A stretch of DNA of 51,009 nucleotides from contig CAYXGW010000029.1 of the NCBI GenBank assembly GCA_964464595.1, positions 1 through 51,009 of the forward strand. Reading direction: 5' to 3'. The notes under the pieces were generated by a model, which was not told where the DNA came from, ran no database searches, and saw only the letters and a list, made by a program, of their open reading frames with translations. A program made the position numbers and the translations under genes. Below, piece by piece: positions 2,141 to 29,714 of this stretch (positions within the stretch are counted from its first letter, which is position 1; every line of letters starts with the position of its first letter). This DNA is from an uncultured Deferribacteres bacterium. Lineage in GTDB: Bacteria > Zhuqueibacterota > JdFR-76 > DREG01.

Positions 2141-2590
2141 ATGACACTAGTAAGATGGCGACCGAGTAGAGATCTACTGAATATAAACAGCGATTTTGAT
2201 CGCTTATTCAGCGATTTTTTTGGCAATAGTCTAAGTAAAAGATATAATGGATCGGAAAGAACCATTTATCCAAGCATTGACCTTTTGGAGTCCGACAAAG
2301 AATTTGTCGTGAAAGCTGAGTTGCCGGGAATTGATAAAGACAATGTTAAGATAACTTTGCAGGAAAATATCTTAACTTTACTTGGTGACAAGATCCAGGA
2401 AAAGGAAGAGAAGAACGAAAATTATCGTCATAATGAAAGAATTTATGGCGTATTTGAGCGTTCGATTCGACTTCCAAATTTTGTTGATGCCAAGAAGATT
2501 AAGGCAAATTTTAAGGATGGAATATTAAGTATTAACTTGCCAAAATCAGCAGAAGCAAAGCTTAAAGAGATCCCTATTTCAGTCAATTAA
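2141..2590 (+). CDS. Hsp20/alpha-crystallin family small heat-shock protein
   Basis: The alpha-crystallin domain reads 'VVKAELPGIDKDNVKITLQENILTLLGDK...GVFERSIRLPNFVDAKKIKANFKDGILSINLPK'. An AGGAG RBS lies 8 nt upstream. Confidence 0.9.
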   Translation: MTLVRWRPSRDLLNINSDFDRLFSDFFGNSLSKRYNGSERTIYPSIDLLESDKEFVVKAELPGIDKDNVKITLQENILTLLGDKIQEKEEKNENYRHNERIYGVFERSIRLPNFVDAKKIKANFKDGILSINLPKSAEAKLKEIPISVN

Positions 2591-2697: not shown

Positions 2698-3201
2698 ATG
2701 ATTAAAATTGATATTGAGTTTGATAAAACAAATAAAACGGTAGAAAATACGCCAAGTAACAATAGCAACAACCAGAGCTCTAAAAGATCTGAATATTTAG
2801 AGTTATTTCAAATGACAAAGGCGGAGTTCGATAATTTTAAAAAAAGAACGGAGAAAGAAAAGTTGGAATTGTCGGAATTCGTTGAAGGAAATTTAATTTC
2901 AAAAATTCTTCCGGTATTGGATGATTTTGAAAGAATGTTGCAATCTGAAGTTCAAGTTAAACCGCTATTAGAAGGTTGTCGCTTAATTTACAAAAATCTT
3001 AATTCAATATTTACTGCACTTGGCTTAAGTGAGTTTGGAAAAATAGGAGATTCATTCGATCCAAATATGCATGAGGCAATCGCAGTAAATAAAGGGGAAG
3101 ATGAGATCGATAACAAAATAATGTCAATATTAGAAAAAGGCTATATATTTAAAAATAGAATACTTAGGTATGCGAAAGTTGAAGTTGGAGCAGCACAATA
3201 A
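2698..3201 (+). CDS. grpE: Nucleotide exchange factor GrpE
   Basis: The GrpE-like coiled-coil and head region reads '[15 protein letters not shown]...[12 protein letters not shown]...[23 protein letters not shown]'. The gene lies immediately upstream of dnaJ. Confidence 0.85.
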
Positions 3202-3221: not shown

Positions 3222-4115
3222 ATGTCTAACAAAGATTATTACAATATTTTAGGAATTAAAGAAAATGCTTCTTCAGATGAAATTAAAAAAGCCTATAGAA
3301 AACTAGCTAAAAAATATCATCCGGATTCGCATCCAGGTGATAAAACTGCAGAATCTCACTTTAAAAAGATTGCTGAAGCTTATGATGTTTTGTCAGATGT
3401 TACAAAAAGAAAGCAATATAATCAATATCGTAAATATGGTGGTTCTTTTCCCGGTGGTAATTTTGGCAATTCTCAATATGAGTGGAACACTTCAAATGGC
3501 TTAGGCTTTGATTTTGGAAGTAGTTTCGGTGATATTTTTTCCAATTTATTTGGTCAAAATGGCAGTAGTTCCAGGCGAAGCAGGGAAAGAAAAAGTCAGG
3601 ATATTTTTGCTGATTTACAAGTTCCTTTTAAAACAACTGCTTATGGTGGTAAACAAACATTTAGCATACAGGCTAACGGAGTAAAAAAAACTCTCTCAGT
3701 GAATATTAATCCGGGAATAGAGAACAAAGATCAAATTCGCTTATCAGGTCAAGGCTCTAGGGGAATCGGAGGCGAGCCAGGTGATTTGATTTTAACGGTT
3801 TATATCACACCTATAGCTAATTTTAAGAGAGAAGGATTAGATATTATTAACATCGTAGAATTAAATTTAGCTCAAGCTTTACTTGGAACAAAACTTAAAG
3901 TTCAAACATTAGAAGGCAGAAAGGTGCAAGTATCAATTCCTGAAGGAAGCCAGAATGGACAAAGACTTCGTCTTAAAGGACTAGGTATCAAAACTCGGAA
4001 TAATAAGTCTGGAGAATATTTTTTGGAATTTAAGATTAATATGCCAGCAAAACTTAATAAAGACCAAAAAGAACTAATTGAAGAATTTGCACGTAAGAGT
4101 AGTCTAAATTTTTAG
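3222..4115 (+). CDS. J-domain co-chaperone, class B (CbpA/DnaJB-like; J domain plus G/F-rich region, no CxxCxGxG zinc finger)
   Basis: J domain '[31 protein letters not shown]', followed by a Gly/Phe-rich linker and C-terminal substrate-binding domains. No Cys repeats are present. Confidence 0.85.
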
Positions 4116-4128
4116 AAAGGAAGCTATC

Positions 4129-5643
4129 ATGTTAAAAAATAGAAAATTTGGATTAGGTGTATCTTTAATATTTGTAATTGGACTAATGGTTGGAATAATC
4201 CTGACGTCTCAATTGAACACCGCAACCCCCTTAAACGCAACAACTGCGAATCCTGAAATTAATCCTAATCTTGTTCAGAATGCTGAACTAACACCTCAAC
4301 AGGATGATTTAATATCACAGTTAAATGGAATTTTTACGCAAGCTGCAAAAAAAATAAAACCGTCGGTTGTAACTATATTCAGCAAAAAAATCATAAAAAC
4401 TCGAGGCTATACAAGTCCACGTGATCTTTTTGATGAATTTTTTCGCGGACGACGAAGGCAACAACCTAATGAACGAGAATTTGTCCAAAAAGGAATGGGT
4501 TCTGGCGTTATTATTGATGCAGATGGTCTGATTCTAACAAACAACCATGTTGTTCAAGGTGCCGATGATATCAGTGTAAAAACAATAGACGGGAAAATCT
4601 ATGATGCTGAAATCATTGGGACAGATCCAAACACAGATTTAGCGGTAGTAAAAATCGATGTTACAGGTTTACCCGCAGCTAGTTTAGGTAATTCTGATCA
4701 ACTTGAAGTAGGCGAGTGGGTTTTAGCAGTTGGTAATCCTTTTTCAGAAGAATTGCATCAAACAGTTACTAAGGGAATTGTAAGTGCAAAAGGGCGTCAA
4801 GATTTAAATTTAGCTGCATATGAAGATTTCATTCAAACAGATGCTCCGATAAATCCTGGAAATAGTGGAGGGGCTTTGGTTAACTTACGTGGTGAATTAG
4901 TAGGAATTAATACTGCAATTATAGCTCCAAATGGGGCTTTTTCGGGCATCGGTTTTGCTATTCCTGTAAACTTGGCTAGAAGAATCATGAAGGATCTTAT
5001 TGATAAAGGTAGAGTAATTCGTGGCTATTTGGGGGTGGTCATTCAACCTGTAAATGCAGATCTTGCTAAGGTATTAAACCTGAAAGATACAAAGGGTGCA
5101 ATTATTTCGAGCGTTGAAAAAGATAGTCCGGCATACAATGCAGGGTTTAAATCATCGGACGTTATTTTAAAATTTGACGGTACAGAAATTCGTGATGATG
5201 ACCACCTCAGATTTGTAGTTGCGGACATTCAACCGGGGAAAAAAGTTCAGACAATCATTAATCGTGATGGGAAAGAAAAGAGACTCTCGATTGTTATAGG
5301 TGAACGGTCAGAACCGGGGCAGGAGTCCACTCCATCAGTCTCATCAACAATTAAACAAAAATTGGATATAGAAGTTAGCAATTTAACTTCTGAATTAACC
5401 GGACAATACGGCTATACCGAGAACAGTGGTGTGTTGATTACTCATGTTGGAACGAAAATTCAAACCCAGCGAAAAGATTTACGTGTGGGAGATTTAATCA
5501 AAGAAGTGAATCGAAAGAAAGTCACGATTGTTTCAGAATTTTATGAAATAATCAGAAACCTTGAAAAGGGAGATAGAGTATTATTTCTTGCCCAAAGAGG
5601 AGCGAATAACTTTTTTGAAGCATTAGAAATCAATGAGGATTAA
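4129..5643 (+). CDS. htrA: Periplasmic serine endoprotease HtrA/DegP family (trypsin domain plus two PDZ domains)
   Basis: 'LTNNHVV' carries the catalytic His, 'TDLAVVKI' the Asp and 'GNSGGALVN' the Ser. There is an N-terminal TM/signal and a PDZ-like C-terminal half. Confidence 0.9.
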   Translation: MLKNRKFGLGVSLIFVIGLMVGIILTSQLNTATPLNATTANPEINPNLVQNAELTPQQDDLISQLNGIFTQAAKKIKPSVVTIFSKKIIKTRGYTSPRDLFDEFFRGRRRQQPNEREFVQKGMGSGVIIDADGLILTNNHVVQGADDISVKTIDGKIYDAEIIGTDPNTDLAVVKIDVTGLPAASLGNSDQLEVGEWVLAVGNPFSEELHQTVTKGIVSAKGRQDLNLAAYEDFIQTDAPINPGNSGGALVNLRGELVGINTAIIAPNGAFSGIGFAIPVNLARRIMKDLIDKGRVIRGYLGVVIQPVNADLAKVLNLKDTKGAIISSVEKDSPAYNAGFKSSDVILKFDGTEIRDDDHLRFVVADIQPGKKVQTIINRDGKEKRLSIVIGERSEPGQESTPSVSSTIKQKLDIEVSNLTSELTGQYGYTENSGVLITHVGTKIQTQRKDLRVGDLIKEVNRKKVTIVSEFYEIIRNLEKGDRVLFLAQRGANNFFEALEINED

Positions 5644-6938: not shown

Positions 6939-7002
6939 ACTCGACTTGATATTTTCAAAATAAAAAATAAATAGTATCTTTTGGTATCGGAGGTTGCAAT
7001 TT

Positions 7003-7302
7003 ATGCCTACTTATGAATATCGTTGTACTGTATGTGAAAATCAATTTGAAGTCTTTCAATCGATAAAAGATGATCCGATAGACTTATGTCCGGAGTGCGG
7101 GGGAAAAGCAAAAAAACTCTTAAGTGCCGGAATTGGATTAATTTTTAAAGGAAGTGGATTTTACATCACCGATTATAAAAATAATGGCAACAAATCTGAT
7201 AAAAAAGAAAATATTGAAAAAGAGAAAAAAAAGGAAACAGTTAGTTCCGGAAAAGGGGATGGTTCTCAATCCAAAACTTCAGAAAAATCAAAAAATCAAT
7301 AG
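7003..7302 (+). CDS. FmdB-family zinc-ribbon protein with a Lys/Ser-rich tail
   Basis: 'MPTYEYRCTVCENQFEV...CPECGG' is the FmdB CxxC...CxxC zinc ribbon. The ATG at 7003 lies 9 nt after GGAGG. The ORF-track TTG at 6994 is less likely. Confidence 0.7.
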   Translation: MPTYEYRCTVCENQFEVFQSIKDDPIDLCPECGGKAKKLLSAGIGLIFKGSGFYITDYKNNGNKSDKKENIEKEKKKETVSSGKGDGSQSKTSEKSKNQ

Positions 7303-7507
7303 AGAATATATTTGGTGGATTAAGTAAATTTCCGGTTTTTTCATCCGGAATATTCAATATGTAGAAATAATATCTGTCACATAGTCTAGCTCTTCTGACA
7401 ATAAGACCTTAATTTCTGTCATAATTTCAAATCACTCCTTTTTGTAGCATTTTGACAATTGTTCATAACTCATTGATAAATAAGAACTAATATCAATAAA
7501 CAAAACT

Positions 7508-7523
7508 TGGTACAGTGCTTGCT
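7508..7523 (+). promoter_or_regulatory. Candidate sigma54 -24/-12 promoter for the hsp20-dnaK operon
   Basis: TGGTACAgtgcTTGCT gives GG/GC at the canonical spacing, with the -12 GC 41 nt upstream of the hsp20 ATG. Confidence 0.5.
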
Positions 7524-7561
7524 AGTTAAATAGAAAATAATTATTTAGTTGGAGGTTCAAA

Positions 7562-7936
7562 ATGTCAGTTGGTCATATGTTAATGAAACAGAATACCCAT
7601 AATTGCCAAGTTCAAAAAGGGGTTTTCCCTGCAGTGGATGTTTCTGAATCTGATAAATCATTATTATTTCGAGCTGAATTGCCAGGATTTGATAAGAATG
7701 AATTGGAAGTAGCCTATGAAAAGGATAGGCTCATTCTTAAAGGTAAACGAAAACTTGAAATTAAATCTATGAAAGTTCATTTGAAAGAACGTTTTCAAGG
7801 GAAATTTGAACGTCAATTTGTTGTTTCTGAAGAGCTTAATCCGTCGGAATTTAAAGCCAGTTACAAGGATGGTATTTTGAGTGTATCGATTCCTAAAAAA
7901 GAGGAATTGAAGTTTTTGGATATCCCGATTAACTAA
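7562..7936 (+). CDS. Hsp20/alpha-crystallin family small heat-shock protein (second paralog)
   Basis: 'LLFRAELPGFDKNELEVAYEKDRLILKGKRK...FERQFVVSEELNPSEFKASYKDGILSVSIPKK'. A GGAGG RBS is present. Confidence 0.9.
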   Translation: MSVGHMLMKQNTHNCQVQKGVFPAVDVSESDKSLLFRAELPGFDKNELEVAYEKDRLILKGKRKLEIKSMKVHLKERFQGKFERQFVVSEELNPSEFKASYKDGILSVSIPKKEELKFLDIPIN

Positions 7937-7992: not shown

Positions 7993-9915
7993 ATGGGAAA
8001 AATTATTGGAATCGATTTAGGGACAACGAATTCATGTGTGGCGGTGATGGTCGGTGGTGAGCCGGTCGTTATCCAAAATTCTGAAGGGGTAAGGACTACT
8101 CCATCTATGGTGGGATTTCTGAAGAATGGTGAGAGGGTTGTTGGGCAACCTGCCAAGCGGCAAGCAATTACAAATCCGCAAAAAACAGTTTATTCCATCA
8201 AACGATTCATGGGTAGACGAAATAATGAAGTAACTGAAGAGATTAAGCAAGTGCCTTATAAGATTAAAAAGGGACGTGGAAATGTAGCTGTTGTAGATAT
8301 TGATGGAAAAGACTATACACCGCAAGAGATTTCCGCGATGGTTCTGCAAAAGATGAAGCAAACTGCCGAGGAATATTTAGGCGAAAAAGTAACAGAAGCT
8401 GTGATAACCGTTCCAGCTTATTTTAACGATAGCCAACGCACAGCTACGAAAGAAGCTGGTGAAGTTGCCGGTTTAAAGGTTAGACGAATAATTAATGAAC
8501 CTACAGCAGCTTCCCTGGCATATGGATTAGACAAGAAACATGATGAGAAAATTGCAGTTTATGATCTGGGTGGAGGGACTTTTGATATTTCGATCCTGGA
8601 ATTAGGTGATGGTGTATTTGAAGTGAAAGCAACAAGTGGTGATACTCATTTAGGTGGTGATGATTTTGATAAAAGAGTAATCGACTGGATGGTTGATGAA
8701 TTCAAAAAACAAGAAGGTGTAGATTTAAGCAAAGATCCTATGGCATTGCAGCGGTTAAAAGAAGCTGCTGAAAAAGCTAAAGTTGAATTGTCTAGTACTG
8801 CGCAAACCGATATTAATTTACCCTTTGTAACTGCTACTGAATCCGGGCCAAAGCATTTAACAGTCACTCTTTCTCGAGCTAAATTCGAACAACTTTGTGA
8901 AGATTTATTCGTACGATCCATTGAGCCTTGCAAAATCGCACTAAAAGATGCCAAGTTATCGGTCAATGATATTAATGAAGTTATAATCGTTGGTGGCTCA
9001 ACACGGATTCCTAAAATTCAAGATTTAGTAAAGGAATTCTTTAAGAAAGAGCCTAACCGAAGTGTAAATCCTGATGAAGTTGTGGCAATTGGTGCTGCAA
9101 TCCAGGGTGGTGTGCTTGCGGGTGAAGTTAAAGATGTTCTATTGCTTGATGTTACTCCGTTATCGCTCGGTATTGAGACTTTGGGTGGTGTAGCCACCAA
9201 ACTGATTGAAAAAAATACAACAGTTCCTACAAAGAAGACTGAAATATTCTCTACTGCTGCGGACAACCAGACTTCTGTCGAAATCCATGTATTGCAGGGT
9301 GAACGGGAAATGGCGACTTATAATAAATCTCTTGGCAAATTTCACCTAGATGGAATCCCGCCTTCGCCGCGTGGAGTGCCTCAAATTGAAGTGATCTTTG
9401 ATATCGATGCAAACGGAATTTTACACGTGAAAGCAATTGACAAAGCAACAAATAAAGAGCAATCAATTCGAATTGAAGCTTCCTCCGGATTATCTGATGC
9501 GGAAATTGAAAAAATGGTAAAAGATGCAGAACAGCATGCAGACGAAGATAAGAAACGTAAAGAAATAATTGATACTAAAAATCAGGCGGATCACCTGGTA
9601 TATACAACTGAAAAGAGCTTGAAGGAAAATGAAGAAAAAATATCAGACGATGATAAGAAGTCAATCGAATCTGCAATCGAAAAACTGAAAGAAGCAAATA
9701 AAGGTGAAAATGCTGAAGATATTAAGGCAGAGTTAGAAGCTGTAAACCAGGCCTGGGCTCCGGTTGCTCAGAAGCTTTATGCCGATGCTTCAACTGCTCA
9801 GGCTCAAGCTGAACCGCAACCAGATAGTGACGAAGCTCAAACAAGTAAAAATGGCAAAGAAAAAGTTGAAGATGCTGATTATGAAGTAATCGACGATCAA
9901 GATAAAAAAGAGTAA
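7993..9915 (+). CDS. dnaK: Molecular chaperone DnaK (Hsp70)
   Basis: '[18 protein letters not shown]', '[12 protein letters not shown]' and the C-terminal lid. 640 aa. Confidence 0.98.
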
Positions 9916-9935: not shown

Positions 9936-9975
9936 ACGGCGAGTTGGAAAATATCCTCTCGCCGTTTTTTATTTT
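9936..9975 (+). terminator. Rho-independent terminator after dnaK
   Basis: Stem ACGGCGAG/CTCGCCGT followed by TTTTTTATTTT. Confidence 0.8.
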
Positions 9976-10037: not shown

Positions 10038-12650
10038 ATGACATTTGATAAATTGACAATAAAAGTACAAGAGGCATTGAAAAAAGCACAAGAAATTGCT
10101 TCTGAATATAATCAGCAAAAAGTAGATGTGGAACATCTTCTCTTTGCTATGTTAACTGATCCGGATGGAGTTCCTGTTTCAGCTTTAAATAAAATTGGAA
10201 TTAATGCTCAGGTGATTCAATCTCAGGTTACTAAACGGATTGAAAGCATTCCCAAAGTATATGGCGAGGTTTCTCAATTATATATGGATCAGAGGCTCAA
10301 TAAACTAATTGAGAAAGGATTTAAAGAAGCGAAAAATATGAAAGATGAGTATGTGAGTCTCGAACACCTACTTATCGTAATGACCGAGGATGAAGAGGAA
10401 ACGGGTAATATCCTTCGAAGTAATGGGATAACACGGGATAAATTGTATGATGTCCTCAAATCAATTCGGGGCAATCAGCGGGTGACAGACCAAAACCCTG
10501 AAGCAAAATATCAAGCGTTAGAGCGTTATGGACAAAATTTAACAAGTTTGGCAGAACAGGGGAAGTTGGATCCTGTAATCGGAAGAGACGAAGAAGTTAG
10601 ACGGGTTTTGCAAGTACTATCTCGCAGGACTAAAAACAACCCGGTATTGATTGGTGACCCGGGTGTTGGGAAAACTGCAATTGCTGAAGGATTAGCTCAA
10701 AGAATTGTTAGCGGCGATGTACCTGAGAATTTAAAGAACAAACAAATCGTCACATTAGACCTCGGTTCATTAATCGCCGGCTCAAAATATCGAGGTGAAT
10801 TTGAAGATAGATTAAAAGCGGTGCTAAAGGAAATCGAGGGGTCTAATGGCAAAATTATCCTGTTTATTGATGAGTTGCATACTCTGGTTGGAGCAGGAGC
10901 TGCAGAAGGATCTATGGATGCATCGAATATGCTTAAACCTGTATTGGCGCGTGGAGCGCTACGCTGTATCGGTGCAACTACTATAGATGAATTTAGAAAA
11001 TATATCGAAAAAGATGCAGCACTGGAACGCCGTTTCCAGAAAGTTTTTGTAAATGAACCCTCAGTATCGGAAACCATTTCAATTTTACGCGGACTAAAAG
11101 AGAAGTATGAAGTTCATCATGGTGTTCGGATGACTGATTCAGCCATTATTGCAGCGGCAACTTTATCGCACCGCTATATTAGTGATCGATTTTTGCCGGA
11201 TAAGGCTATCGATTTGGTAGACGAGGCGGCTGCAAAACTGCGGATTGAAATTGATAGTATGCCAGATGAGCTTGACGAAGTTGAGCGAAAAATAAAACAA
11301 TTGGAAATAGAACGAGAAGCTGTAAAACGAGATAAAGATGATGCTGCCAGAAATCGTTTAAACAAAATTCAAAAAGAATTGGCTGACTTGAATGAGCAAA
11401 GGAGGGAACTCCGATCACATTGGACTTTGGAAAAGAACTCCATCCAAACCATTAGATCCGTGAAAGAAGAACTGGAGAAAGTTAAAACTCTAATGGCGCA
11501 GGCGGAAAGAGATGGCGATTTAAGTCGAGCCGCTGAATTGAAGTATGGTAGGACGATAGACCTGCAAAAGAAACTTGAATCAGAAAATATTAATCTTCAG
11601 AATATTCAGAAAAATTTCAAAATGCTTAAAGAAGAAGTAGATGAGGAAGATATTGCAGACGTTGTATGTAAATGGACCGGAATACCAGTTAGCAGGATGC
11701 TTGAATCGGAGCGTGAGAAACTCTTGACAATGGAAAAACGCTTGAGAAAAAGAGTAATTGGGCAAGACGAAGCTGTCCAGGCAATTTCGGATGCAATTCG
11801 AAGGTCTCGTGCTGGTTTACAGGATGACAATAGACCCATTGGATCATTTATTTTCTTAGGGTCAACGGGTGTGGGCAAAACGGAATTAGCCAGGGCGTTG
11901 GCTGAATTTTTATTCGATGATGAACATGCGATGATTCGAATTGATATGTCCGAATATATGGAAAGACATTCGGTTGCCAGGCTTATCGGAGCGCCCCCGG
12001 GATATGTTGGCTACGAAGAAGGTGGGCAGTTGACCGAAGCCGTTAGACGAAAACCGTATTCAGTTGTTTTGTTGGATGAAATTGAAAAAGCACACCCTGA
12101 GGTCTTTAATATTCTTCTGCAAGTTTTGGATGATGGACGATTAACGGATAATAAAGGTCATACAGTCAATTTTAAAAATGTTATTGTGATCATGACTTCC
12201 AATTTAGGGGCTCCCATGATCCTGGAAAAATCATTATTGATTACAGAAAAGAATCGAGAGAAAATCTACCAGGAAATCAAATATGAAGCGATTGACTTAT
12301 TAAAAAGGTCAATGCGGCCAGAATTTCTAAATCGCATTGACGAAACTATCGTTTTTCATCCACTTGATTACAAACATATTGCTGAAATTGTGAAATTACA
12401 ATTTCAATTAGTTGCAAAAAAAGCCAATGAGAACGGAATCATTTTATCTATTGTAGACGATGCAATTCAACTACTTACTGAAGTTGGCTACGACCCTGCA
12501 TTTGGAGCCAGGCCAATTAAAAGAGAAATACAAAGATTGATCACCAATAAGCTTGCAAAAGAATTACTAGATGGAAGTATTGTTTCCGGAGATTTAGTCA
12601 AAGTAATTCGCGGTGGAAATTCTCTTGAATTTACAAAGAAATCAAAATAA
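10038..12650 (+). CDS. clpB: ATP-dependent chaperone/disaggregase ClpB
   Basis: Clp N domain, two AAA+ modules ('GDPGVGKT', 'GSTGVGKT') and a long coiled-coil M-domain between them. 870 aa. Confidence 0.97.
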
Positions 12651-14396: not shown

Positions 14397-15389
14397 TTGT
14401 TACACAAGGATATTAAAGAGATTAATGAGATGATTCAAAAAGAAAGTGAATTTGTTGAGAAGCTGCTTGGCGAATTCAACAAAATTATTATTGGTCAAAA
14501 ATATATGGTCGAACGTTTATTAATAGGCTTATTAAGCAATGGTCACATTTTACTCGAAGGTGTACCCGGCCTGGCCAAGACACTTGCCGTTCGTGTATTA
14601 TCCGGTGCAATAAAAGCTAAATTCCAGAGATTGCAATTTACTCCGGATTTACTTCCTGCTGATTTAATCGGAACGATGATTTTTAACCAACGCAGTGGAG
14701 ATTTTTCTACCAAAAAAGGTCCCATATTTGCGAATCTCATCTTGGCGGATGAAATCAACAGATCGCCTGCTAAAGTTCAAAGTGCACTTCTTGAAGCAAT
14801 GATGGAACGCCAAGTTACAATTGGAGAAAATACTTTTAAGCTGGACGATCCCTTTTTAGTGCTCGCTACACAAAATCCAATCGAACAAGAGGGAACCTAT
14901 CCATTACCGGAAGCCCAAATTGACCGATTTATGTTAAAGCTTTCCATCGGTTATCCAAATAAAGATGAGGAATTGGAGATCATGCGACTCAATTCAGGAG
15001 ATGGGTTACCGGAACCTACACCTGTGGTTAGTACAAAAGAGATCATTCGAGCTCGGAAAGTTGTATCTCAAATCTATATTGATGAAAAAATTGAACGCTA
15101 TATCATCGATATTGTCTTTGCTACTCGAAATCCTTCGGATTACCAACTCACCGATATGAAGGATCTGATTGCTTTTGGCGCCTCACCACGTGCTTCAATT
15201 GGGTTGGCTGCTGCCAGCAAGGCACATGCATTTTTAAGGCGAAGAGGATATGTAACTCCTGAAGATGTCCGAGCAATTGGCATGGATGTATTGAGACATC
15301 GTGTTATTCCAACGTACGAAGCCGAAGCGGAAGAAGTAAGTTCCGAGGACATAGTACGTAAAGTATTAAATCATATTGAAGTACCTTAA
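14397..15389 (+). CDS. MoxR-family AAA+ ATPase
   Basis: Walker A 'GVPGLAKT', Walker B 'LILADEINR', and 'ATQNPIEQEGTYPLPEAQIDRF'. A TTG start lies 7 nt after AGGAGG. Confidence 0.9.
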   Translation: MLHKDIKEINEMIQKESEFVEKLLGEFNKIIIGQKYMVERLLIGLLSNGHILLEGVPGLAKTLAVRVLSGAIKAKFQRLQFTPDLLPADLIGTMIFNQRSGDFSTKKGPIFANLILADEINRSPAKVQSALLEAMMERQVTIGENTFKLDDPFLVLATQNPIEQEGTYPLPEAQIDRFMLKLSIGYPNKDEELEIMRLNSGDGLPEPTPVVSTKEIIRARKVVSQIYIDEKIERYIIDIVFATRNPSDYQLTDMKDLIAFGASPRASIGLAAASKAHAFLRRRGYVTPEDVRAIGMDVLRHRVIPTYEAEAEEVSSEDIVRKVLNHIEVP

Positions 15390-15409
15390 TCGCTTTTCCA
15401 AAAATTAGT

Positions 15410-16288
15410 ATGATCCCTAAAGAAATACTTAAAAAAGTTAAGCGCATCGAAATTACAACCCGCGGTTTGGTAAATGATGTATTCTCCGGACAATACCATT
15501 CGGTATTCAAAGGAAGAGGGATGGATTTTACCGAAGTACGTGAGTACACTCCGGGTGATGACATACGTGTAATTGATTGGAACGTATCCGCACGAATGGG
15601 CCATCCTTTTGTTAAAGTATATGAAGAAGAGCGAGAATTAACGGTCATTTTAATGGTTGATGTCAGCTCATCTGGGAATTTTGGTACTTTTGAGCAAATG
15701 AAAGGTGAAATTGCAATTGAGATTTGTGCACTGCTGGCTTTTTCTGCAATTAAAAATAATGACAAAGTCGGTTTGATAATATTTACAGATGGAGTCGAAA
15801 AATTTGTAGCACCTAAAAAAGGCAAGAGTCATGTGCTTCGTGTGCTAAGAGAATTATTATTTCATAAACCCCAAAGTACAAAAACCGATATCGGTGGAGC
15901 CTTGGAATTTTTAAATCACATAGCAAAAAGAAGGAGTGTTGTTTTTTTGGTTTCAGATTTTATGTCAGAAGATTACAAAAAAGCGCTGCAAATAGCGAAT
16001 AAACGTCATGATGTAGTTGCAATCACAATCACAGATCCAAGAGAGACGGAATTGCCCGCAGTTGGATTTATCGAATTCGAAGATGCCGAAACCGGTGAGA
16101 TTTTCATGGTTGACACCAACAGTTCCGATATCCGTACCGGTTTCGTTCAAAAAGCGGATGCTCGCAAAATTGAACGTGAAAAACTATTTAAATCAATGAA
16201 TATCGACCATATAGATATTTTTACACATCAAGCTTACCCAGAGCCTTTAATGCGATTTTTTCGAATGCGAGCGAAACGGTTCAGATAG
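15410..16288 (+). CDS. DUF58 (vWA-like) protein, MoxR partner
   Basis: 'VREYTPGDDIRVIDWNVSAR', a DUF58 signature. Conserved gene order with moxR. Confidence 0.85.
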   Translation: MIPKEILKKVKRIEITTRGLVNDVFSGQYHSVFKGRGMDFTEVREYTPGDDIRVIDWNVSARMGHPFVKVYEEERELTVILMVDVSSSGNFGTFEQMKGEIAIEICALLAFSAIKNNDKVGLIIFTDGVEKFVAPKKGKSHVLRVLRELLFHKPQSTKTDIGGALEFLNHIAKRRSVVFLVSDFMSEDYKKALQIANKRHDVVAITITDPRETELPAVGFIEFEDAETGEIFMVDTNSSDIRTGFVQKADARKIEREKLFKSMNIDHIDIFTHQAYPEPLMRFFRMRAKRFR

Positions 16289-16317
16289 AAAAAACAAGAA
16301 TAGGAATATAAATAACA

Positions 16318-17244
16318 ATGAAATGGTGTAATTTGATTTTTTTCGTTATCTCTTTGGCGATTTTGACGGGTTGTAGTTCAAGTTCTCAACCGGATTTTAG
16401 TGCTGAAAAAATCCGGGAATTTGCCAATGAACTTTATAATCGACAGCTGTTTGAACAAGCAGTCGATCAATATCAGTTTTATCTCGAAAACTACAACCTG
16501 AAGCCAAAAGAGCAGGCGAATATTACCTATCAAATTGCTAATATTTATTTTGATCGCATGCGTGATTATAAAAATGCACTTGCACATTTTCTTAAAATCA
16601 AAACTTTATATCCGGAAAGCCCGCTTATTTCGGAAGTGAACAAAAAAGTCATCATCTGTTTAGAACGATTACAAAGACCCGCCGATGCTCAACAAGTGTT
16701 GAGGGAAAGCACATCGTTTGAAGGTCAGACCCGCAAAAGTCGCCCGGGAGAAGTCATAGCTAAGATTGGCAAGCGAGATATCACATTAGGAGACCTGGAT
16801 TTTGAGATCAGCAAATTGCCACCTGAGCTCCGGTCACAATATATCACGATTGATAATAAAATAGAATTTCTTCGCAGGTATTTGGCAACAGAATTATTGT
16901 ATGATTCTGCCAAACGACAGGGGCTCGAAAATGATGATCAGGTTTTGGAAAACGTTTTTCAAGCAAAAAAAACTTTTATGGTAACAAAGTTATTAGAAGA
17001 AGAAATCAGTAAAAAAGTAAAAATCACAGAAGATGATGTTAAACTTTATTATGATGCACATAAAAATGATTTTGCGGAAAAAGATGAAGATGGAAATGTG
17101 AAACGGATGTTGTCCTTTGAAGAAGCGGGTCAACAAGCAGCACAAAAATTAGCTTTTGAGCGACAAGAAAAAGCATATAATGAATTGATTTCCTCGTTAT
17201 TTCTAGCCGAAAAAGTCGTAATTTATGATGACCTGATAAAATAA
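16318..17244 (+). CDS. Lipoprotein with a TPR-like N-terminus and a SurA-N-like chaperone domain
   Basis: Lipobox 'ILTGC', then helical repeats. The C-terminal half has periplasmic-chaperone-like character. Confidence 0.45.
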   Translation: MKWCNLIFFVISLAILTGCSSSSQPDFSAEKIREFANELYNRQLFEQAVDQYQFYLENYNLKPKEQANITYQIANIYFDRMRDYKNALAHFLKIKTLYPESPLISEVNKKVIICLERLQRPADAQQVLRESTSFEGQTRKSRPGEVIAKIGKRDITLGDLDFEISKLPPELRSQYITIDNKIEFLRRYLATELLYDSAKRQGLENDDQVLENVFQAKKTFMVTKLLEEEISKKVKITEDDVKLYYDAHKNDFAEKDEDGNVKRMLSFEEAGQQAAQKLAFERQEKAYNELISSLFLAEKVVIYDDLIK

Positions 17245-17257
17245 ACCGGTAGATTAA

Positions 17258-18355
17258 ATGATGTTTGGTTACAAAAAAATTTATTTAATTTTAATTCTCA
17301 TTTATTTATTTATTTTCAATTTTGTTTCCGATGGATTCGGTCAGGGTAACATTTCGCTGTCTGCCAGTGTGGATAAAGCGACAATTACCATTGGTGATAT
17401 CATAACCTATTCAGTATCTGTTATACGAGATGAGGATGTATCTGTCGAACTTCCAAGCTTGGGTGGAAACCTGGGACAATTCGAAATTCGTGATTATAAC
17501 ATTTATGAACCTGAAAAAAAAGATGGCAAAATCATTGACCGGGTTGATTATACAATTTCGACCTTTGAGGTTGGTGAATTTGAGATACCACCGGTTGGTA
17601 TCAGGTATTTTATCCTACCGGATTCAACTGAACAAAGCCTCAAAACCGAAGTGATTAATATTACTGTAGAAAGTGTTAAACCCAGCGAAGAAGGCGATAT
17701 CCAAGATATTAAACCACCCTGGGAAATCTTATTCAATTGGAGGCCCATTATTATTGGCGGATCGATCGCATTAATTGTGATTCTACTAATAATCGGTTTG
17801 ACTATTTATTTGCGCAAGCGGAAAAAAGGCGAATCATTTTTGCCGAAAAAAATTGAAATACCCAGGCCTCCCCATGAAATTGCTTATGAAGAGCTTAAAA
17901 TATTACAAAATTCGGATCTTCTTAAACAGGGTCAAATCAAGCTTTATTATTCAGAAATATCGGAAATTATTCGGAAATATATTGAGGGGCGATTTCAAAT
18001 TATTTCGCTTGAACTAACTACTACAGAATTGATGATTGAACTTAATACTACAGATTTATCTTCAGAAAATGTATCACTTTTTGAAATGTTTTTTACCAAT
18101 TGCGACCTGGTTAAATTTGCAAAGTTTATTCCAGGTGATGAAGAAAATGATGAAATTATGAAGTCAGCTATTCGCATTTTAGATGAAACCAAATGGGTAG
18201 AGGAACTAATTTCGGAGCTGCAAGAAAAAACGACGGATGATGAAGTGAAAGTCGATGACAAAGATCAAATGAAAGATGAAAGGAATCAACATGCTGAAGT
18301 TGCAATTGTCACGGATGAAGAGCTTTCGTCAAATTTGAATAAGGAAGATAATTAG
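17258..18355 (+). CDS. BatD-like / Bat-operon membrane protein (signal, extracytoplasmic domain, one TM, cytoplasmic tail)
   Basis: 'ISLSASVDKATITIGDIITYSVSV...' resembles the BatD N-terminal domain. TM 'WRPIIIGGSIALIVILLIIGLTIYL' is followed by RKRKK. The gene sits between DUF58 and batA, where Bat operons carry a small membrane protein. Confidence 0.5.
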   Translation: MMFGYKKIYLILILIYLFIFNFVSDGFGQGNISLSASVDKATITIGDIITYSVSVIRDEDVSVELPSLGGNLGQFEIRDYNIYEPEKKDGKIIDRVDYTISTFEVGEFEIPPVGIRYFILPDSTEQSLKTEVINITVESVKPSEEGDIQDIKPPWEILFNWRPIIIGGSIALIVILLIIGLTIYLRKRKKGESFLPKKIEIPRPPHEIAYEELKILQNSDLLKQGQIKLYYSEISEIIRKYIEGRFQIISLELTTTELMIELNTTDLSSENVSLFEMFFTNCDLVKFAKFIPGDEENDEIMKSAIRILDETKWVEELISELQEKTTDDEVKVDDKDQMKDERNQHAEVAIVTDEELSSNLNKEDN

Positions 18356-19351
18356 ATGCTTTATCGATTAGCCGATCCATATTTTTTATTCTTATTGCTG
18401 TTTTTACCGGTATTGCTCTTTTTGCATTTCAAACGGCGCTCTCCACAAACTGTAACTTTGCAATATTCTAATTTAAATATCATTAAGTCTGCCGGCAAAT
18501 CTCGATGGTATTTTTATAGGCATATCTTATTTGGTCTTCGGCTGTTGGCAATGGGATTCATCATTATTGCTTTGGCAAGACCACAATCTGGCAGTAAGGA
18601 AGAGGAAATTACAACAGAAGGGATCGATATTATTTTGGCTTTGGATATTTCAAGTTCTATGCTGGCAGAAGACTTTAAGCCCAAAAATAGATTGGAAGTT
18701 GCAAAACTTGTCGCAGAGAATTTCGTAAAAGGTCGAACAAGCGATAGAATCGGTATGGTGGTTTTTGCCGGAGAAAGTTATACGCAATGTCCACTAACTT
18801 TAGACTATGGAATCTTGTTGAACTTTATAAGAGATGTAAAAATAGGTTTGGTTGAAGACGGCACTGCAATCGGCATGGCTGTTGCAAATGCCGTTAACCG
18901 CCTTCGTGATAGTAAAGCTAAGAGTAAAGTAATTATTCTATTAACTGATGGCCGCAACAATTCCGGCGAATTACACCCTTTATCGGCTGCACAAATTGCC
19001 AAAGCTTTAGATGTAAAGATTTACACCATTGGTGCAGGCAGCAAAGGTACTGCATTGTACCCAATTGTAGATCCCGTGTTTGGAAAAAGATATCAACGCT
19101 TGCCCGTTGAAATTGATGAGGACCTTTTACAAAAAATGGCATCTATGACAGGCGGGCAATATTTCAGAGCCATAGATAAAAGTTCTCTTGAGAAAATTTT
19201 TGATGAGATTGGTCAACTAGAAAAAACCAAGATTGAAGTTAAAGAATACACTCGTTATCGGGAATTGTTTTCAATTTTTCTTTCTGTAGGATTGATTTTG
19301 TTTGGGTTGGAAATGTTATTATCAAATACAAAATTCAAGAAAATACCATAA
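18356..19351 (+). CDS. batA: vWA-domain protein BatA
   Basis: Two N-terminal TMs and a vWA domain with MIDAS 'DIILALDISSSM'. Confidence 0.85.
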   Translation: MLYRLADPYFLFLLLFLPVLLFLHFKRRSPQTVTLQYSNLNIIKSAGKSRWYFYRHILFGLRLLAMGFIIIALARPQSGSKEEEITTEGIDIILALDISSSMLAEDFKPKNRLEVAKLVAENFVKGRTSDRIGMVVFAGESYTQCPLTLDYGILLNFIRDVKIGLVEDGTAIGMAVANAVNRLRDSKAKSKVIILLTDGRNNSGELHPLSAAQIAKALDVKIYTIGAGSKGTALYPIVDPVFGKRYQRLPVEIDEDLLQKMASMTGGQYFRAIDKSSLEKIFDEIGQLEKTKIEVKEYTRYRELFSIFLSVGLILFGLEMLLSNTKFKKIP

Positions 19352-19367
19352 GACTTTTAGGATTACA

Positions 19368-20399
19368 ATGTTTCGATTTGCAAGCGAACAATATTTATAT
19401 ACTCTTTTATTTGTTCCGGTACTGTTCCTGTTTTTTGTTTGGGTCCAAAAATCAAAAATGAAAGCCCTTGAGCGTTTCGGCAATATAAAATTGATGGATA
19501 AATTAATGTTGTCAAAAAGTCCAAAACGACAGAATTGGAAAAAAGCGCTTTTGATTCTATCATTATTTTTCTTTCTTGTTGCCCTTGCCCGGCCTCAAAT
19601 TGGGACAAAACTTGAAGAAGTAAAGCGCAGCGGAGTTGATATTTTTGTCGCGATTGACGTATCCAAATCGATGTTGGCGGAGGACATCAAACCCAACCGG
19701 TTGACCAAAGCAAAGCATGAAGTAGCAACACTTATACATCAACTGCGAGGAGATCGTATTGGGCTAATTGTGTTTGCCGGGGAAGCATTTGTCCAATGCC
19801 CGCTTACTTTAGATTATGGCGCGCTAAAAATTTTTCTGGATATTATCGAACCGGGATTAATTCCAAGGCCTGGTACGGCTATAGGCAAAGCAATAGAAAA
19901 ATCAATTGAATCATTTGTAGAGACTGAAAGAAAACATAAAGTATTGATTCTCATTACAGATGGAGAAGATACCGTAAAGGATCCTATGAAAGTTGCAGAG
20001 ATTGCAGAAAAAGAAGGTATCGTAATCTATACAGTAGGAATTGGTTCTTCACAAGGAGTTCCGATCCCTGAGTTTGATGGATCTGGAAAACAAGTGGGGT
20101 TTAAAAAAGACAAAAAAGGGAATGTGGTTACTTCTAAATTGGATCCACTCACTCTCGAAAAAATTGCACTTCAAACGAATGGTAAATATTATAATGCTAC
20201 ACCCGCGGAAATGGAACTTTCCAAAATCTATGAAGATATAGATAAAATGGATAAAAAGGAGTTATCGTCAAGAATATTTTCACAATACGAAGATCGATTT
20301 CAATACTTCTTAGCCATCGGCCTATTTTTGCTATTAGCTGATCTATTTATTCCGGAACGAAGAAAAGTAAAAACCGAGTGGAGAGGAAGGTTTGAGTAA
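19368..20399 (+). CDS. batB: vWA-domain protein BatB
   Basis: N-terminal TMs, MIDAS 'DIFVAIDVSKSM', C-terminal TM. The ATG at 19368 follows the batA stop at 19351. The ORF-track start at 19302 overlaps batA and was rejected. Confidence 0.85.
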   Translation: MFRFASEQYLYTLLFVPVLFLFFVWVQKSKMKALERFGNIKLMDKLMLSKSPKRQNWKKALLILSLFFFLVALARPQIGTKLEEVKRSGVDIFVAIDVSKSMLAEDIKPNRLTKAKHEVATLIHQLRGDRIGLIVFAGEAFVQCPLTLDYGALKIFLDIIEPGLIPRPGTAIGKAIEKSIESFVETERKHKVLILITDGEDTVKDPMKVAEIAEKEGIVIYTVGIGSSQGVPIPEFDGSGKQVGFKKDKKGNVVTSKLDPLTLEKIALQTNGKYYNATPAEMELSKIYEDIDKMDKKELSSRIFSQYEDRFQYFLAIGLFLLLADLFIPERRKVKTEWRGRFE

Positions 20400-20425
20400 A
20401 CTTATTCGACCAAATAGGTAATATT

Positions 20426-21148
20426 ATGAAATTGTTTAGATATACAACTGTTTTACTTGTTCTGATTTTACCAACTATTCTGTTTTCCCAATCTACCAGG
20501 GAAAGGGTAAAAAATGGTAATGAATTATTTGCTGATAAGAACTATGATCAGGCATTAAATAAATATCAAGATGCTCTTTTGTCAGATCCTGAGAATGATA
20601 GAATTCAATTCAATGTTGGCAATACATTATACAAAAAGAATAATTATGAAGATGCTTTGCAAGAATACCAAAAAGTTATGGGGAGTGAAGATTTGCAGCT
20701 AGAACAACAAGCATATTATAATGTTGGCAACACTCTATATAAACTTGGGAAATTACCTGAGAGTATTCTTGCTTATCAGCAAGCGTTAAAAATGAACCCT
20801 GACGATATCGATGCCAAATACAATTTAGAATATGTTCGCCGTAAATTAAAAGATAATAAAGATGAGCAGAACCAGGATCAACAGAACCAACAACAGCAAC
20901 AACAGCAAGACCAACAGAATCAGCAGCAACAACAAGGAGACGATGAGCAAGATCAGCAGCAACAAGAACAGCAAGGTGATGAGGAACAAGAGCAACAAGG
21001 TGAGCAACAAAACCAACAGAGCTCTGAACAATTGTCAAAAGAAGATGCCGAACGAATTTTAGATGCCTTAAAGAATGATGAAAAGGAGATTCAGAAAAAA
21101 CGGAAAGTTAAGAGTAAAGGGCGGTATCGGGTGGAAAAAGATTGGTGA
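20426..21148 (+). CDS. batC: TPR-repeat protein BatC with a Gln/Glu/Asp-rich low-complexity tail
   Basis: Signal peptide, three TPR units ('YDQALNKYQDALLSDPEND', 'YEDALQEYQKV', 'LPESILAYQQALKMNPDD'), then roughly 60 aa of poly-Q/E/D. Confidence 0.8.
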   Translation: MKLFRYTTVLLVLILPTILFSQSTRERVKNGNELFADKNYDQALNKYQDALLSDPENDRIQFNVGNTLYKKNNYEDALQEYQKVMGSEDLQLEQQAYYNVGNTLYKLGKLPESILAYQQALKMNPDDIDAKYNLEYVRRKLKDNKDEQNQDQQNQQQQQQQDQQNQQQQQGDDEQDQQQQEQQGDEEQEQQGEQQNQQSSEQLSKEDAERILDALKNDEKEIQKKRKVKSKGRYRVEKDW

Positions 21149-21152
21149 GAAA

Positions 21153-23036
21153 ATGACTTTTAATAAGAACATAAAAATCAAATTTCCAAATAAAAATTTA
21201 GATGCACTTTATTTTCTTGTTTTATTCTTTTTTACATTTCCACATTTTCTCTTTAGTCAGGATTTAACGCTGAAAACCTTAGTCGATCGCACGAAAGTAG
21301 CAACCAACCAACAATTCTCTTTAACAATTGAAATATCAGGAAAGGAAGCTCAATCCGTAGGAATTCCCAATCCACCGGATTTATCATCATTTGCCATTTT
21401 ATCCGGCAACTCAGGTACCACATCCAGTTTTCAGCTATTAAATGGCAGAATGTCAGTTTCAAAGAGTGCAACCTACAACTATATTGCGAGCACAGAAGGT
21501 GAATTTAATATTCCATCCATCTCGATTAATTTTAGCGGAAACACATATCGTTCAAGGCCAATTAAAATTGAAATCGTTAAGGGTACTACCCCGCCTTTAA
21601 CTGCTCGAAATCGGAGTTCAAGGAGTGGCGGTATTCAACCGGAAGGGGAGCTTGAAGGGAATTTGTATTTAGCCGCAGAAATCAATAAGAATACGGTTTT
21701 TAGAAATGAACCAATTGTCGTTACCTATAAAATTTATACCAGGGTTGAGGTGAGTAATTACAGCCTGATCAAATCGCCGGATCTGATCGGTTTTTGGACT
21801 GAAGATTTTGAGATTCCCAAGCAACCAAATACTTATGAAGAAATTATTGATGGTAAAAGATTTCTTGTAGCTGAAATCAAAAAGATTGCACTTTTTCCTA
21901 CCCAAACAGGGGAAAAAATTTTGGGGCCGATGGAAATAGATTGTGAAGTCCGGCTCAAAACACGAAGAAGAAGTCGTGATATTTTTGAGGATTTTTTTGA
22001 TAGTAGCAGTCTTTTTGGTCAAAGGGTTCGGACAACCATTACAAGTAAACCACTTAAAATTACGGTAAAACCCTTGCCTCTGGAGGGAAGACCTTCAGAT
22101 TTTAATGGTGTGGTTGGCAGTTTTAGTTGGAACGTATCTTTGGATAAGAATGAAGTATCCACCAACGAGGCGATTACTCTGAAGATGAAAATCAAAGGGA
22201 GAGGAAATATTAAAATATTGCCTGAGCCAAAATTTAAATTTCCTCAAGGGTTTGAAATGTATGAACCGGAAGTAAGCCAGAAAATAAATCGAACCGGTAA
22301 TGTAATAAGTGGTGAAAAAGTATACGAATATGTTTTTATTCCCAGGTTTGCAGGGACACACAGGATTAAGCCAATATCCTTTGTATATTTTGATCCAAAT
22401 TCTTTTTCTTATAAGAGGCTGGAAACACCTGAATTTGTAATCAAGGCCAAAGCTTCGACGGGAACGGGTGCGCCAATCACAAGCGGGTTAACTCGTGAAG
22501 AGATAAAATTCATAGGTAGGGATATTCGTTTTATTAAAGAAAGACCGGTTGAATTCCAGAAGATTGGCAATCATTTTCATAAATCATTTCTTTTTGGATT
22601 TTTAATTAGTATCCCCCTTGTTGCTTTTGGTGGCACATTATTATACCGCCAAAGGCAAGGAAAAATGGAAGTGAATGTCGCGTATGCAAGAAATCGGCGG
22701 GCGAATCAGATGGCGAAGAAAAAACTCGCAGGAGCCCACAAAATATTAAAACCCGATCACCAAAAAGAATTTTATGCTGAGATTTCAAAAGCTTTGCTTG
22801 GATTTATCTCTGACAAACTAAACCTATCAGCGGCTGGATTAAACAGTGATGAGGTTGAAGAAAAGCTGAAAGAAAGAAAAGTTAAAAAGGAAGTTGTTGC
22901 AGAGGTATTATCCATTGTTCAAGAGTGTGATTTCCAAAGATTTGCACCTTCGAATACTACGGTAGAAGATATGCAGCAATTCTATAATCGAGCGACTTCC
23001 GCAATATCTAACCTGGAAAAATCAGATCTTAGTTAA
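21153..23036 (+). CDS. batD: BatD (oxygen-tolerance) protein
   Basis: About 620 aa: signal peptide, large extracytoplasmic region, TM 'FLFGFLISIPLVAFGGTLLY', cytoplasmic C-terminus. Sits in the canonical batC-batD-batE position. The ATG at 21153 follows the batC stop. Confidence 0.8.
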   Translation: MTFNKNIKIKFPNKNLDALYFLVLFFFTFPHFLFSQDLTLKTLVDRTKVATNQQFSLTIEISGKEAQSVGIPNPPDLSSFAILSGNSGTTSSFQLLNGRMSVSKSATYNYIASTEGEFNIPSISINFSGNTYRSRPIKIEIVKGTTPPLTARNRSSRSGGIQPEGELEGNLYLAAEINKNTVFRNEPIVVTYKIYTRVEVSNYSLIKSPDLIGFWTEDFEIPKQPNTYEEIIDGKRFLVAEIKKIALFPTQTGEKILGPMEIDCEVRLKTRRRSRDIFEDFFDSSSLFGQRVRTTITSKPLKITVKPLPLEGRPSDFNGVVGSFSWNVSLDKNEVSTNEAITLKMKIKGRGNIKILPEPKFKFPQGFEMYEPEVSQKINRTGNVISGEKVYEYVFIPRFAGTHRIKPISFVYFDPNSFSYKRLETPEFVIKAKASTGTGAPITSGLTREEIKFIGRDIRFIKERPVEFQKIGNHFHKSFLFGFLISIPLVAFGGTLLYRQRQGKMEVNVAYARNRRANQMAKKKLAGAHKILKPDHQKEFYAEISKALLGFISDKLNLSAAGLNSDEVEEKLKERKVKKEVVAEVLSIVQECDFQRFAPSNTTVEDMQQFYNRATSAISNLEKSDLS

Positions 23037-29046: not shown

Positions 29047-29056
29047 TAATTAATTC

Positions 29057-29698: not shown

Positions 29699-29714
29699 CT
29701 AGTTTGAGGATAAT

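Follow-up and report, generated by a model that had tools for sequence, protein, structure and literature searches.

Phased dyads as a putative enhancer of sigma-54-type hsp20-dnaK promoters in an uncultured Deferribacteres bacterium and its relatives

Promoters of the sigma-54 type have already been predicted computationally at chaperone genes. According to the available text of a survey published in PLoS One in 2025 (PMC12316311), such predicted promoters are enriched at the GroEL, IbpA (Hsp20), GroES, GrpE, DnaJ and DnaK genes of Bacteroidota and Planctomycetota, and the survey states, citing earlier work, that grpE and groES depend on sigma-54 in B. thetaiotaomicron and F. psychrophilum; that text gives promoter predictions only, with no enhancer motif, site architecture or activator. 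Here we describe a further instance, from a related uncultured lineage, in a 51,009-nt stretch of DNA (contig CAYXGW010000029.1 of assembly GCA_964464595.1, referred to hereafter as the window) from an uncultured Deferribacteres bacterium. Two sigma-54-type -24/-12 promoters, P1 and P2, precede two chaperone operons, hsp20(1)-grpE-dnaJ-htrA and hsp20(2)-dnaK respectively, and imperfect 15-bp palindromes lie upstream of both. We suggest that window positions 7374-7523 are the control region of the hsp20(2)-dnaK operon (possibly also of clpB), composed of a sigma-54 promoter and an upstream enhancer, and we regard this as likely. No description of an enhancer motif, a phased architecture or an activator for sigma-54 chaperone genes was found in the full-text literature searched, whose incomplete coverage makes this absence of evidence only, and both motif and architecture appear undescribed; Francke 2011, a Rhodopirellula paper and a Myxococcus paper likewise contained nothing pertinent. 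The relatives drawn on below (KSB1-like, Calditrichota, Balneolales, Gemmatimonadota, Marinimicrobia, Latescibacterota and Eisenbacteria) lie beyond the lineages named in the available text of the survey.

Each of the closest described systems shares a part of this arrangement. In E. coli, the Hsp20-family gene ibpB has its own sigma-54-dependent promoter (Kuczynska-Wisnik et al. 2001, cited via PMC4316790), and the likeness to the window is that of a small heat-shock gene placed under a sigma-54 promoter. However, the ibpB promoter is internal and secondary in a sigma-32 operon, and dnaK, grpE and dnaJ of E. coli are sigma-32 genes, whereas for the core DnaK system of the window no promoters other than the sigma-54 ones are recognisable, and these are accompanied by a conserved putative enhancer. 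The psp system of Enterobacteria, in which the enhancer-binding protein (EBP) PspF is controlled in trans by PspA, is similarly a sigma-54 stress regulon with upstream dyad sites; unlike in psp, no pspA-like gene was seen here, the sites differ in sequence and the target genes code for cytoplasmic chaperones. At the norVW promoter NorR, an EBP with a GAF sensor domain, depends on three GT-N7-AC sites, all of them required. The window resembles norVW in having three putative dimer sites upstream of a sigma-54 promoter, a number that fits a hexamer of three dimers, and a perfect TGTCA-N3-TGACA does contain GT-N7-AC, but the window sites mostly do not keep it.

HrcA/CIRCE, sigma-32 and RNA-thermometer control all act on the same genes, and to the same physiological end, as the system of the window, whose chaperone promoters are of the -24/-12 and not of the sigma-32 type. 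The CIRCE element (TTAGCACTC-N9-GAGTGCTAA) has no match anywhere in the window, even when 3 mismatches are allowed. The hsp20 5' untranslated regions are unstructured (minimum free energies of -0.9 and 0 kcal/mol, weaker than those of shuffled sequences) and an Rfam search of the hsp20 leaders gave no match with E below 0.3, which makes an RNA thermometer (ROSE/fourU) unlikely.

A first-pass annotation of the window, made by a model from the letters alone, had drawn attention to a canonical GG/GC sigma-54-type box before the second hsp20 gene and to four TGTCA/TGACA half-sites upstream of it. Its coordinates for the box, the 38 nt to hsp20, the four pentamers and the 21-bp spacing of the first three are all correct. 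The GG and GC doublets of P2 are exactly 10 bp apart, inside the extended consensus TGGCAC-N5-TTGCW, on the sense strand and in intergenic sequence; the box ends 38 nt before the hsp20(2) ATG (7562), a Shine-Dalgarno sequence GGAGG is present at 7552-7556, and the transcription start is predicted near 7534. P1, also on the sense strand, lies 69 nt before the hsp20(1) ATG, and its transcription start is predicted near 2082, in both cases ~12 nt past the GC. The tight consensus TGGYAY-N5-TTGCW is matched only twice in the 51-kb window (0.28 matches expected), both times before an hsp20 gene, while the looser TGG-N9-TGC is uninformative (25 matches vs 17.7 expected).

Conservation of the promoters was followed in 160 loci collected via their DnaK genes, the taxonomic labels of loci from metagenome-assembled genomes being used as deposited. 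The best DnaK relatives are 70-76% identical and are labelled KSB1, Calditrichota, Ignavibacteria, Balneolales, Gemmatimonadota and similar; the only identical sequence in genome and metagenome scans comes from the same organism (locus L161, run SRR9822615), and the window proteins are singletons in the protein collection searched. Across the loci the strict pattern TGG[CT]A[CT]-N5-[TC]TGC[ATC] has 94 matches, 83 of them on the dnaK strand, and the matches outside the dnaK coding sequence are located directly upstream of dnaK, hsp20-dnaK, Zn-ribbon-dnaK or grpE-dnaJ. Some 30 of the first 80 loci contain this pattern within 1.5 kb upstream of dnaK, with ~0.01 per locus expected, and 99 of 159 loci have a slightly relaxed sigma-54 pattern upstream of dnaK, those of Hymenobacter and Rufibacter among them. 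Orthologous promoters are exemplified by TGGCACGGTGCTTGCA in L001 and TGGCATTGTGCTTGCT in Balneolales, and in L002 and L004, which are syntenic with the window, sigma-54 promoters precede both grpE-dnaJ-htrA and dnaK-clpB. Since non-coding DNA would otherwise diverge over such distances, the continuing likeness of these distant promoters points to selection.

Motif discovery, which the first-pass annotation had proposed as a check, was carried out blind to the window on 85 non-redundant regions spanning 15-200 bp upstream of sigma-54-type dnaK or grpE promoters. The lineages represented, most of them uncultured, include KSB1, Calditrichota, Balneolales, Gemmatimonadota, Marinimicrobia, Latescibacterota and Cytophagales; the loci are phylogenetically non-independent, which is eased by this wide spread and by k-mer-based de-duplication of the regions. 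A count of gapped 4-mer pairs and expectation-maximisation (684 seed words) both reached one 15-mer, aTGnCAATATGGCAG, equivalent to TGnCA-N3-TGnCA with a flanking G, and no second conserved enhancer-like motif came out of blind discovery in the 85 regions. As TGnCA is its own reverse complement, the 15-mer has dyad symmetry. Sites scoring 12 bits or more occur in 80% of the regions, compared with 0.8% of shuffled sequences and 2% of random 185-mers of genomic DNA. When cross-validated two-fold, the motif reached 10 bits or more in 74-84% of held-out promoters compared to 4.8% of controls, and the exact form TGNCA-N3-TGNCA is present in 30/85 regions compared to 0.5% of controls. The TGTCA/TGACA pentamers of the window turn out to be the strong halves of 15-bp imperfect palindromes with the consensus cTGnCA-N3-TGnCAg. 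The 5-bp half-site is a part of the conserved motif, and the likely functional unit is the dyad of 13-15 bp.

Most of the relatives' promoters have at least two sites, and the spacings between neighbours peak at 18-21, 28-32, 39-42 and 51-52 bp, i.e. at whole helical turns, with an extra mode at 12-13 bp contributed by apparently overlapping sites in loci of the Balneolales type. Most sites are located 85-130 bp upstream of the -24 box, as is the case in the loci of KSB1-like bacteria, Latescibacterota, Marinimicrobia and some of the Gemmatimonadota, and the placement at P2 is typical in this respect. One locus (L086) has three of them at -124/-104/-84, matching the layout of P2, and pairs ~20 bp apart occupy the same zone as in P2 in L002, L041, L043, L066, L081 and L087.

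A position weight matrix (PWM) for the enhancer motif, trained without the window, was then applied to the window (~102,000 positions; scores and ranks in Table 1). The pentamers TGTCA at 7375, TGACA at 7396, TGTCA at 7417 and TGACA at 7453 are separated by 21, 21 and 36 bp; the first three belong to scoring sites (sites 1-3), each with a strong left half (CTGWCA, in site 1 CTGTCA) and a weak right half. These sites are two helical turns apart and therefore all lie on one face of the DNA. The array of half-sites as first described holds for these three, while the fourth pentamer, which is out of phase with them and repeats the site 2 decamer TTYTGACAAT, scores poorly. Upstream of P1, a strong and a weak site 20 bp apart jointly make up a long palindrome, TGTCATATTGC...GCAATATTGACA (1932-1964), in agreement with the earlier remark that the same half-sites form a palindrome before the first hsp20; a two-site inverted layout of this kind is also seen at dnaK of L002 (-125/-105). 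Among the top 20 PWM matches of the window, those upstream of hsp20 genes fall into gaps between open reading frames (ORFs) of at least 100 aa and nearly all others fall inside such ORFs. A further match of 9.4 bits (GGTTCAAAATGTCAG, 7554-7568), situated beyond the predicted transcription start, overlaps the start codon of hsp20(2); it may be a downstream site or arise by chance from the ATGTCA start.

The arrangement at P2 is not readily produced by chance. Apart from the four TGWCA words within 83 bp, the window has no cluster of at least three; when it was simulated in full with a Markov model, a cluster of four appeared anywhere in 7/300 runs and a 21/21-bp triple in 0/300. Three phased PWM sites of at least 5.9 bits were seen in 0/20,000 random regions of matched dinucleotide composition (probability <1e-4) and in 0/2,506 real 205-nt windows elsewhere in the 51-kb stretch. 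Enhancers bound by EBPs (enhancer-binding proteins) consist of two or more helically phased dyads of about 13-17 bp, roughly 80-150 bp upstream of the -24 box, and the three 15-bp dyads of P2 (-127, -106 and -85) and the two of P1 (-118 and -98) have, as far as their sequence tells, these properties.

Sigma-54 promoters depend on an EBP in order to fire, and the Fis-type helix-turn-helix (HTH) domains of EBPs bind dyads as dimers. Because an EBP is obligatory, and the dyad is the only conserved upstream motif, an enhancer is the economical reading; the best reading of these sequences is that the dyads serve as the enhancer for one sigma-54 activator common to both chaperone operons. Each 15-bp dyad is most likely the site for a single dimer of such a Fis-type HTH EBP, and three dimers on one DNA face would give a hexameric AAA+ ring, which would loop to the closed sigma-54 holoenzyme and open it by ATP hydrolysis. 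An AT-rich stretch with an IHF-consensus match between enhancer and promoter may assist the loop. Its position (7466-7478) fits the classical enhancer-IHF-promoter layout, and we propose it as a bending site with low confidence, the IHF consensus WATCAANNNNTTR being matched at chance level in the window (9 matches vs 7.8 expected). Like sites at P1 (one strong and one weak, 20 bp apart, ~100 bp upstream) suggest that one activator probably co-regulates both operons, which would then probably constitute one heat or protein-folding stress regulon. Both chaperone promoters also carry sites, of 16-21 bits, in the syntenic loci L002, L004 and L005, and the occurrence of the motif before both promoters in these loci as in the window lends support to the earlier suggestion of one regulator for P1 and P2.

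The activator itself is not encoded nearby: neither an rpoN/Sigma54 domain nor an EBP was detected in the window with Pfam (ORFs of at least 100 aa), a GAFTGA/Walker-A regular expression or an EBP hidden Markov model run on six-frame ORFs. Sigma54_activat matches to ClpB and MoxR were rejected as generic AAA+ domains and not EBPs. The flanks of the loci closest to the window also contain no linked EBP. In all five Eisenbacteria-type loci (L085, L139, L168, L169 and L170), however, there is an EBP gene of 330-400 aa with AAA+ and HTH_8 as its only domains, and directly after its stop codon come two GTTCCA-N3-TGGAAC dyads of 15 bp, ~23 bp apart, and then a sigma-54 box, hsp20 and dnaK. Geometry and the CA-N3-TG core of this dyad are like those of the window motif, the outer bases differ, and L139 is without the TGnCA form.

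A conserved sensor-less EBP (~400-414 aa, AAA+ and HTH_8) is also encoded in Marinimicrobia loci (L049 4684-5916; L162-L167 about 4001-5236), where it sits in a housekeeping cluster of uvrB, (purD), (epimerase), the EBP, lptE and an aminoacyl-tRNA synthetase gene (Pfam tRNA-synt_2). It adjoins lptE and lies 4-5 kb from dnaK in L049 and L128; next to the EBPs of L091/L127 LptE was not detected. We set it aside as the binder of the motif, as the strongest PWM matches there overlap the uvrB start codon of its operon and are probably coding coincidences, with a right half that is just ATGGCAG (Met-Ala-Glu); given that ATGGCA/ATGTCA starts elsewhere also fire the PWM, this EBP is a weak lead only. 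The candidate EBPs of the relatives share the architecture of PspF (AAA+ and HTH, no N-terminal sensor) but are not PspF orthologues, with sensor-less EBPs scoring 292, 276 and 313 bits on TIGR02974 against a cut-off of 443.55. They reach 319-335 against a NorR cut-off of 476, and none attains the cut-off of any named family among the NCBIfam equivalogs. From the Eisenbacteria arrangement, and by analogy with PspA/PspF and DnaK/sigma-32, we speculate that the activator might be a sensor-less EBP (AAA+ and HTH only) held inactive by free chaperones, and that it might be released when unfolded protein titrates them.

Several observations weigh against an EBP-bound enhancer. In Balneolales, Cytophagales (as in Hymenobacter/Rufibacter loci) and some Gemmatimonadales the motif abuts the -24 box, its centre 15-42 bp upstream, a distance that is uncommonly short for an enhancer and that would fit an operator as well. 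Start codons of the form ATGGCA/ATGTCA score with the PWM too, so that some matches are coding coincidences. Taken singly, the P2 sites have modest scores (6.0-11.6 bits), one half of each being good and the other poor, and the fourth pentamer fails as a full site. With rpoN and EBP genes absent from the window, sigma-54 dependence and EBP binding are predictions from its sequence. Finally, the half-site of the Eisenbacteria EBP is related to that of the window but different, and the idea of a sensor-less EBP controlled by titration is carried over to the window by analogy.

The main rival to the enhancer takes up the first of these points: the palindromes would be operators of a heat-shock repressor (functionally like HrcA/CIRCE or HspR/HAIR) that blocks the sigma-54 promoter or its activator, with the EBP acting elsewhere or from solution. 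Heat-shock operators are typically inverted repeats, the sites beside the -24 box are closer than classical enhancers, and within the window no EBP gene is linked to the chaperone promoters. On the other hand, a site-promoter distance that ranges from ~15 to ~190 bp between lineages, combined with helically phased arrays, is the behaviour of an enhancer and not of occlusion, and every site of the window is at least 85 bp upstream of its -24 box. A repressor would also leave the promoters without an enhancer candidate, no other conserved one having emerged from blind discovery, and it would not account for the equivalent dyads directly after an EBP gene in the Eisenbacteria-type loci. We therefore consider a repressor unlikely.

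Still less probable is that the TGTCA/TGACA boxes are -35 elements of one or more sigma-70-type housekeeping promoters of hsp20-dnaK, unrelated to the sigma-54 box. It is the fourth box that lends itself to this: TTGACA (7452-7457) is followed after 17 nt by GATAAA, the two hexamers together matching 10/12 sigma-70 positions but without the final T, and in L004 a site half TTGACA is similarly followed by TAAAAT after 16 nt; moreover, dnaK normally needs basal expression. The sigma-70 scan, however, does not list this pair or any other plus-strand promoter in 7303-7561, and boxes 1-3 have no -10 partner. In relatives the conserved unit is the 15-bp dyad, GC-rich genomes included, and a 21-bp phasing is not a promoter property. 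The first-pass annotation had named ordinary -35 boxes, or a lack of conservation, as outcomes that would speak against its proposal; what we find is a conserved motif and first three boxes without a sigma-70 -10 partner. A sigma-70 promoter would at most account for the fourth box, as an added basal promoter compatible with the enhancer, and this box may be either a low-affinity site or the -35 of a weak basal sigma-70-like promoter. That short AT-rich words have clustered here by chance and without function, the spacer being AT-rich (28% G+C) and the sites individually weak, is effectively refuted by the simulations of the 21/21 triple and of the phased PWM triple and by the retention of the motif across distant lineages.

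Table 1. Coordinates of the promoters, putative enhancer sites and genes of the two chaperone operons (window positions), and of the Eisenbacteria-type module (locus positions)
Feature	Position	Strand	Sequence	Details
Sigma-54 -24/-12 promoter P2	7508-7523	+	TGGTACAGTGCTTGCT	GG 7509-7510, GC 7521-7522
Putative enhancer site 1 of P2	7374-7388		CTGTCACATAGTCTA	6.0 bits, rank 69; centre -127 from T of -24 TGG
Putative enhancer site 2 of P2	7395-7409		CTGACAATAAGACCT	10.0 bits, rank 19; centre -106 from -24 TGG
Putative enhancer site 3 of P2	7416-7430		CTGTCATAATTTCAA	11.6 bits, rank 9; centre -85 from -24 TGG
Fourth TGACA box	7452-7466		TTGACAATTGTTCAT	one good half; 2.5-2.6 bits in either register
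IHF-consensus match	7466-7478	-	TATCAATGAGTTA	between P2 enhancer sites and -24 box
Sigma-54 promoter P1	2056-2071	+	TGGCACGCCTATTGCT	upstream of hsp20(1)
Putative strong enhancer site of P1	1951-1965		CTGCAATATTGACAC	16.0 bits, rank 2 of ~102,000; centre -98 from P1 TGG
Putative weak partner site of P1	1931-1945		TTGTCATATTGCTAT	3.2 bits, rank not high; centre -118 from P1 TGG
hsp20(1)	2141-2590	+		downstream of P1
grpE	2698-3201	+		downstream of P1
dnaJ-like	3222-4115	+		downstream of P1
htrA	4129-5643	+		downstream of P1
FmdB-family zinc-ribbon gene	6994-7302	+		directly upstream of P2 enhancer sites; Pfam Zn_ribbon_8, TIGR02605
hsp20(2)	7562-7936	+		124-aa small heat-shock protein; Pfam HSP20 E = 5.6e-20; opens P2 operon
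dnaK	7993-9915	+		640 aa, gene 2 of P2 operon; Pfam HSP70 E = 2.4e-271
clpB	10038-12650	+		870 aa; Pfam and sequence
Eisenbacteria-type EBP-dyad-promoter-hsp20-dnaK module	L085 5949-7500; L139 1-1010; L168-L170 3501-5300			

Within the P2 operon, 56 nt separate the hsp20(2) stop from the dnaK start. A hairpin with a T-run, read from the sequence at 9939-9975, follows dnaK and stands between it and clpB, and the sequence ahead of clpB contains no sigma-54 box of its own; clpB may possibly be transcribed by read-through from P2 or from a separate promoter. The adjacency of dnaK and clpB is kept in L002 and L004. In the P1 operon, a terminator-like hairpin (2606-2630) directly after hsp20(1) and before grpE suggests either an output of hsp20(1) that exceeds that of grpE-dnaJ-htrA or an additional promoter for grpE. 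The two Hsp20 paralogues share 36% identity.

The FmdB-family zinc-ribbon gene that precedes the P2 enhancer sites is syntenic with dnaK in nine loci, including the closest relatives (L001-L005 and L081). In three loci of the Gemmatimonadota/Latescibacterota type (L017, L024 and L041) such a gene is found within the sigma-54 operon, in the order promoter, Zn-ribbon, dnaK. This gene might be a member of the chaperone regulon or a part of its control.

The top PWM match of the window (17.7 bits, 41626-41640, minus strand) lies inside a macro-domain gene (41481-42029), and the same gene contains a sigma-54-like sequence, TGGCATTTTGCCTGCA, on the minus strand at 41702-41717, 76 bp from the match. 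No fitting downstream gene exists on that strand, and the pair is possibly due to chance. An unannotated 66-aa ORF with CxxC...CxC cysteines (32272-32472), located between a GAF-domain gene and a Ham1 gene, starts with ATGGCA and thereby yields spurious matches to the enhancer PWM. Elsewhere, the window contains a bacterial microcompartment (BMC) locus at 33712-41143 (sugar-binding regulator, RpiB-DeoC fusion, several BMC shell proteins, aldehyde dehydrogenase and class II aldolase) and an operon of the Bat/MoxR aerotolerance type, with MoxR ATPase, DUF58, BatA/BatD, vWA and TPR proteins. A cluster of an extracytoplasmic function (ECF) sigma factor, a zf-HC2 anti-sigma factor and an HtrA-like protease forms a second, envelope-type stress module in the contig; together with the Bat/MoxR operon it accounts for positions 14397-23801 and 28420-30767. 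Type IX secretion tails, a GWxTD protein and the Bat/MoxR operon, as recognised by Pfam, point to the Fibrobacteres-Chlorobi-Bacteroidetes (FCB) group.

On the sensing of heat and protein-folding stress in Bacteroidota-related and other FCB-group bacteria, the literature searched offers computational sigma-54 promoter predictions only. It is possible, although we advance this tentatively and would not count on it, that in much of the FCB superphylum and its neighbours sigma-54 and one conserved sensor-less EBP, rather than sigma-32 or HrcA, run hsp20, dnaK, grpE, dnaJ and htrA, with switching by chaperone titration in the manner of PspA/PspF. The lineages concerned may be the KSB1-like bacteria, Calditrichota, Balneolales, Gemmatimonadota, Marinimicrobia, Latescibacterota, Eisenbacteria and Cytophagales, and the EBP may recognise phased CA-N3-TG dyads, mostly in the form TGnCA-N3-TGnCA and in Eisenbacteria as GTTCCA-N3-TGGAAC. 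The locus and its relatives supply an enhancer motif that can be tested (cTGnCA-N3-TGnCAg), a site architecture in which 2-3 dyads are spaced by two helical turns and placed ~85-130 bp upstream of the -24 box, and a candidate class of activators, the sensor-less AAA+/HTH EBPs, which in Eisenbacteria-type genomes are encoded beside their target. Taken together, these make the regulator findable by DNA-affinity methods or DNA affinity purification sequencing (DAP-seq) and its regulon predictable in thousands of uncultured genomes. If true, control of chaperones by sigma-54 and an EBP across much of the FCB group would add a third major way in which bacteria govern their heat-shock response, and the window would be a clean two-promoter example of it.

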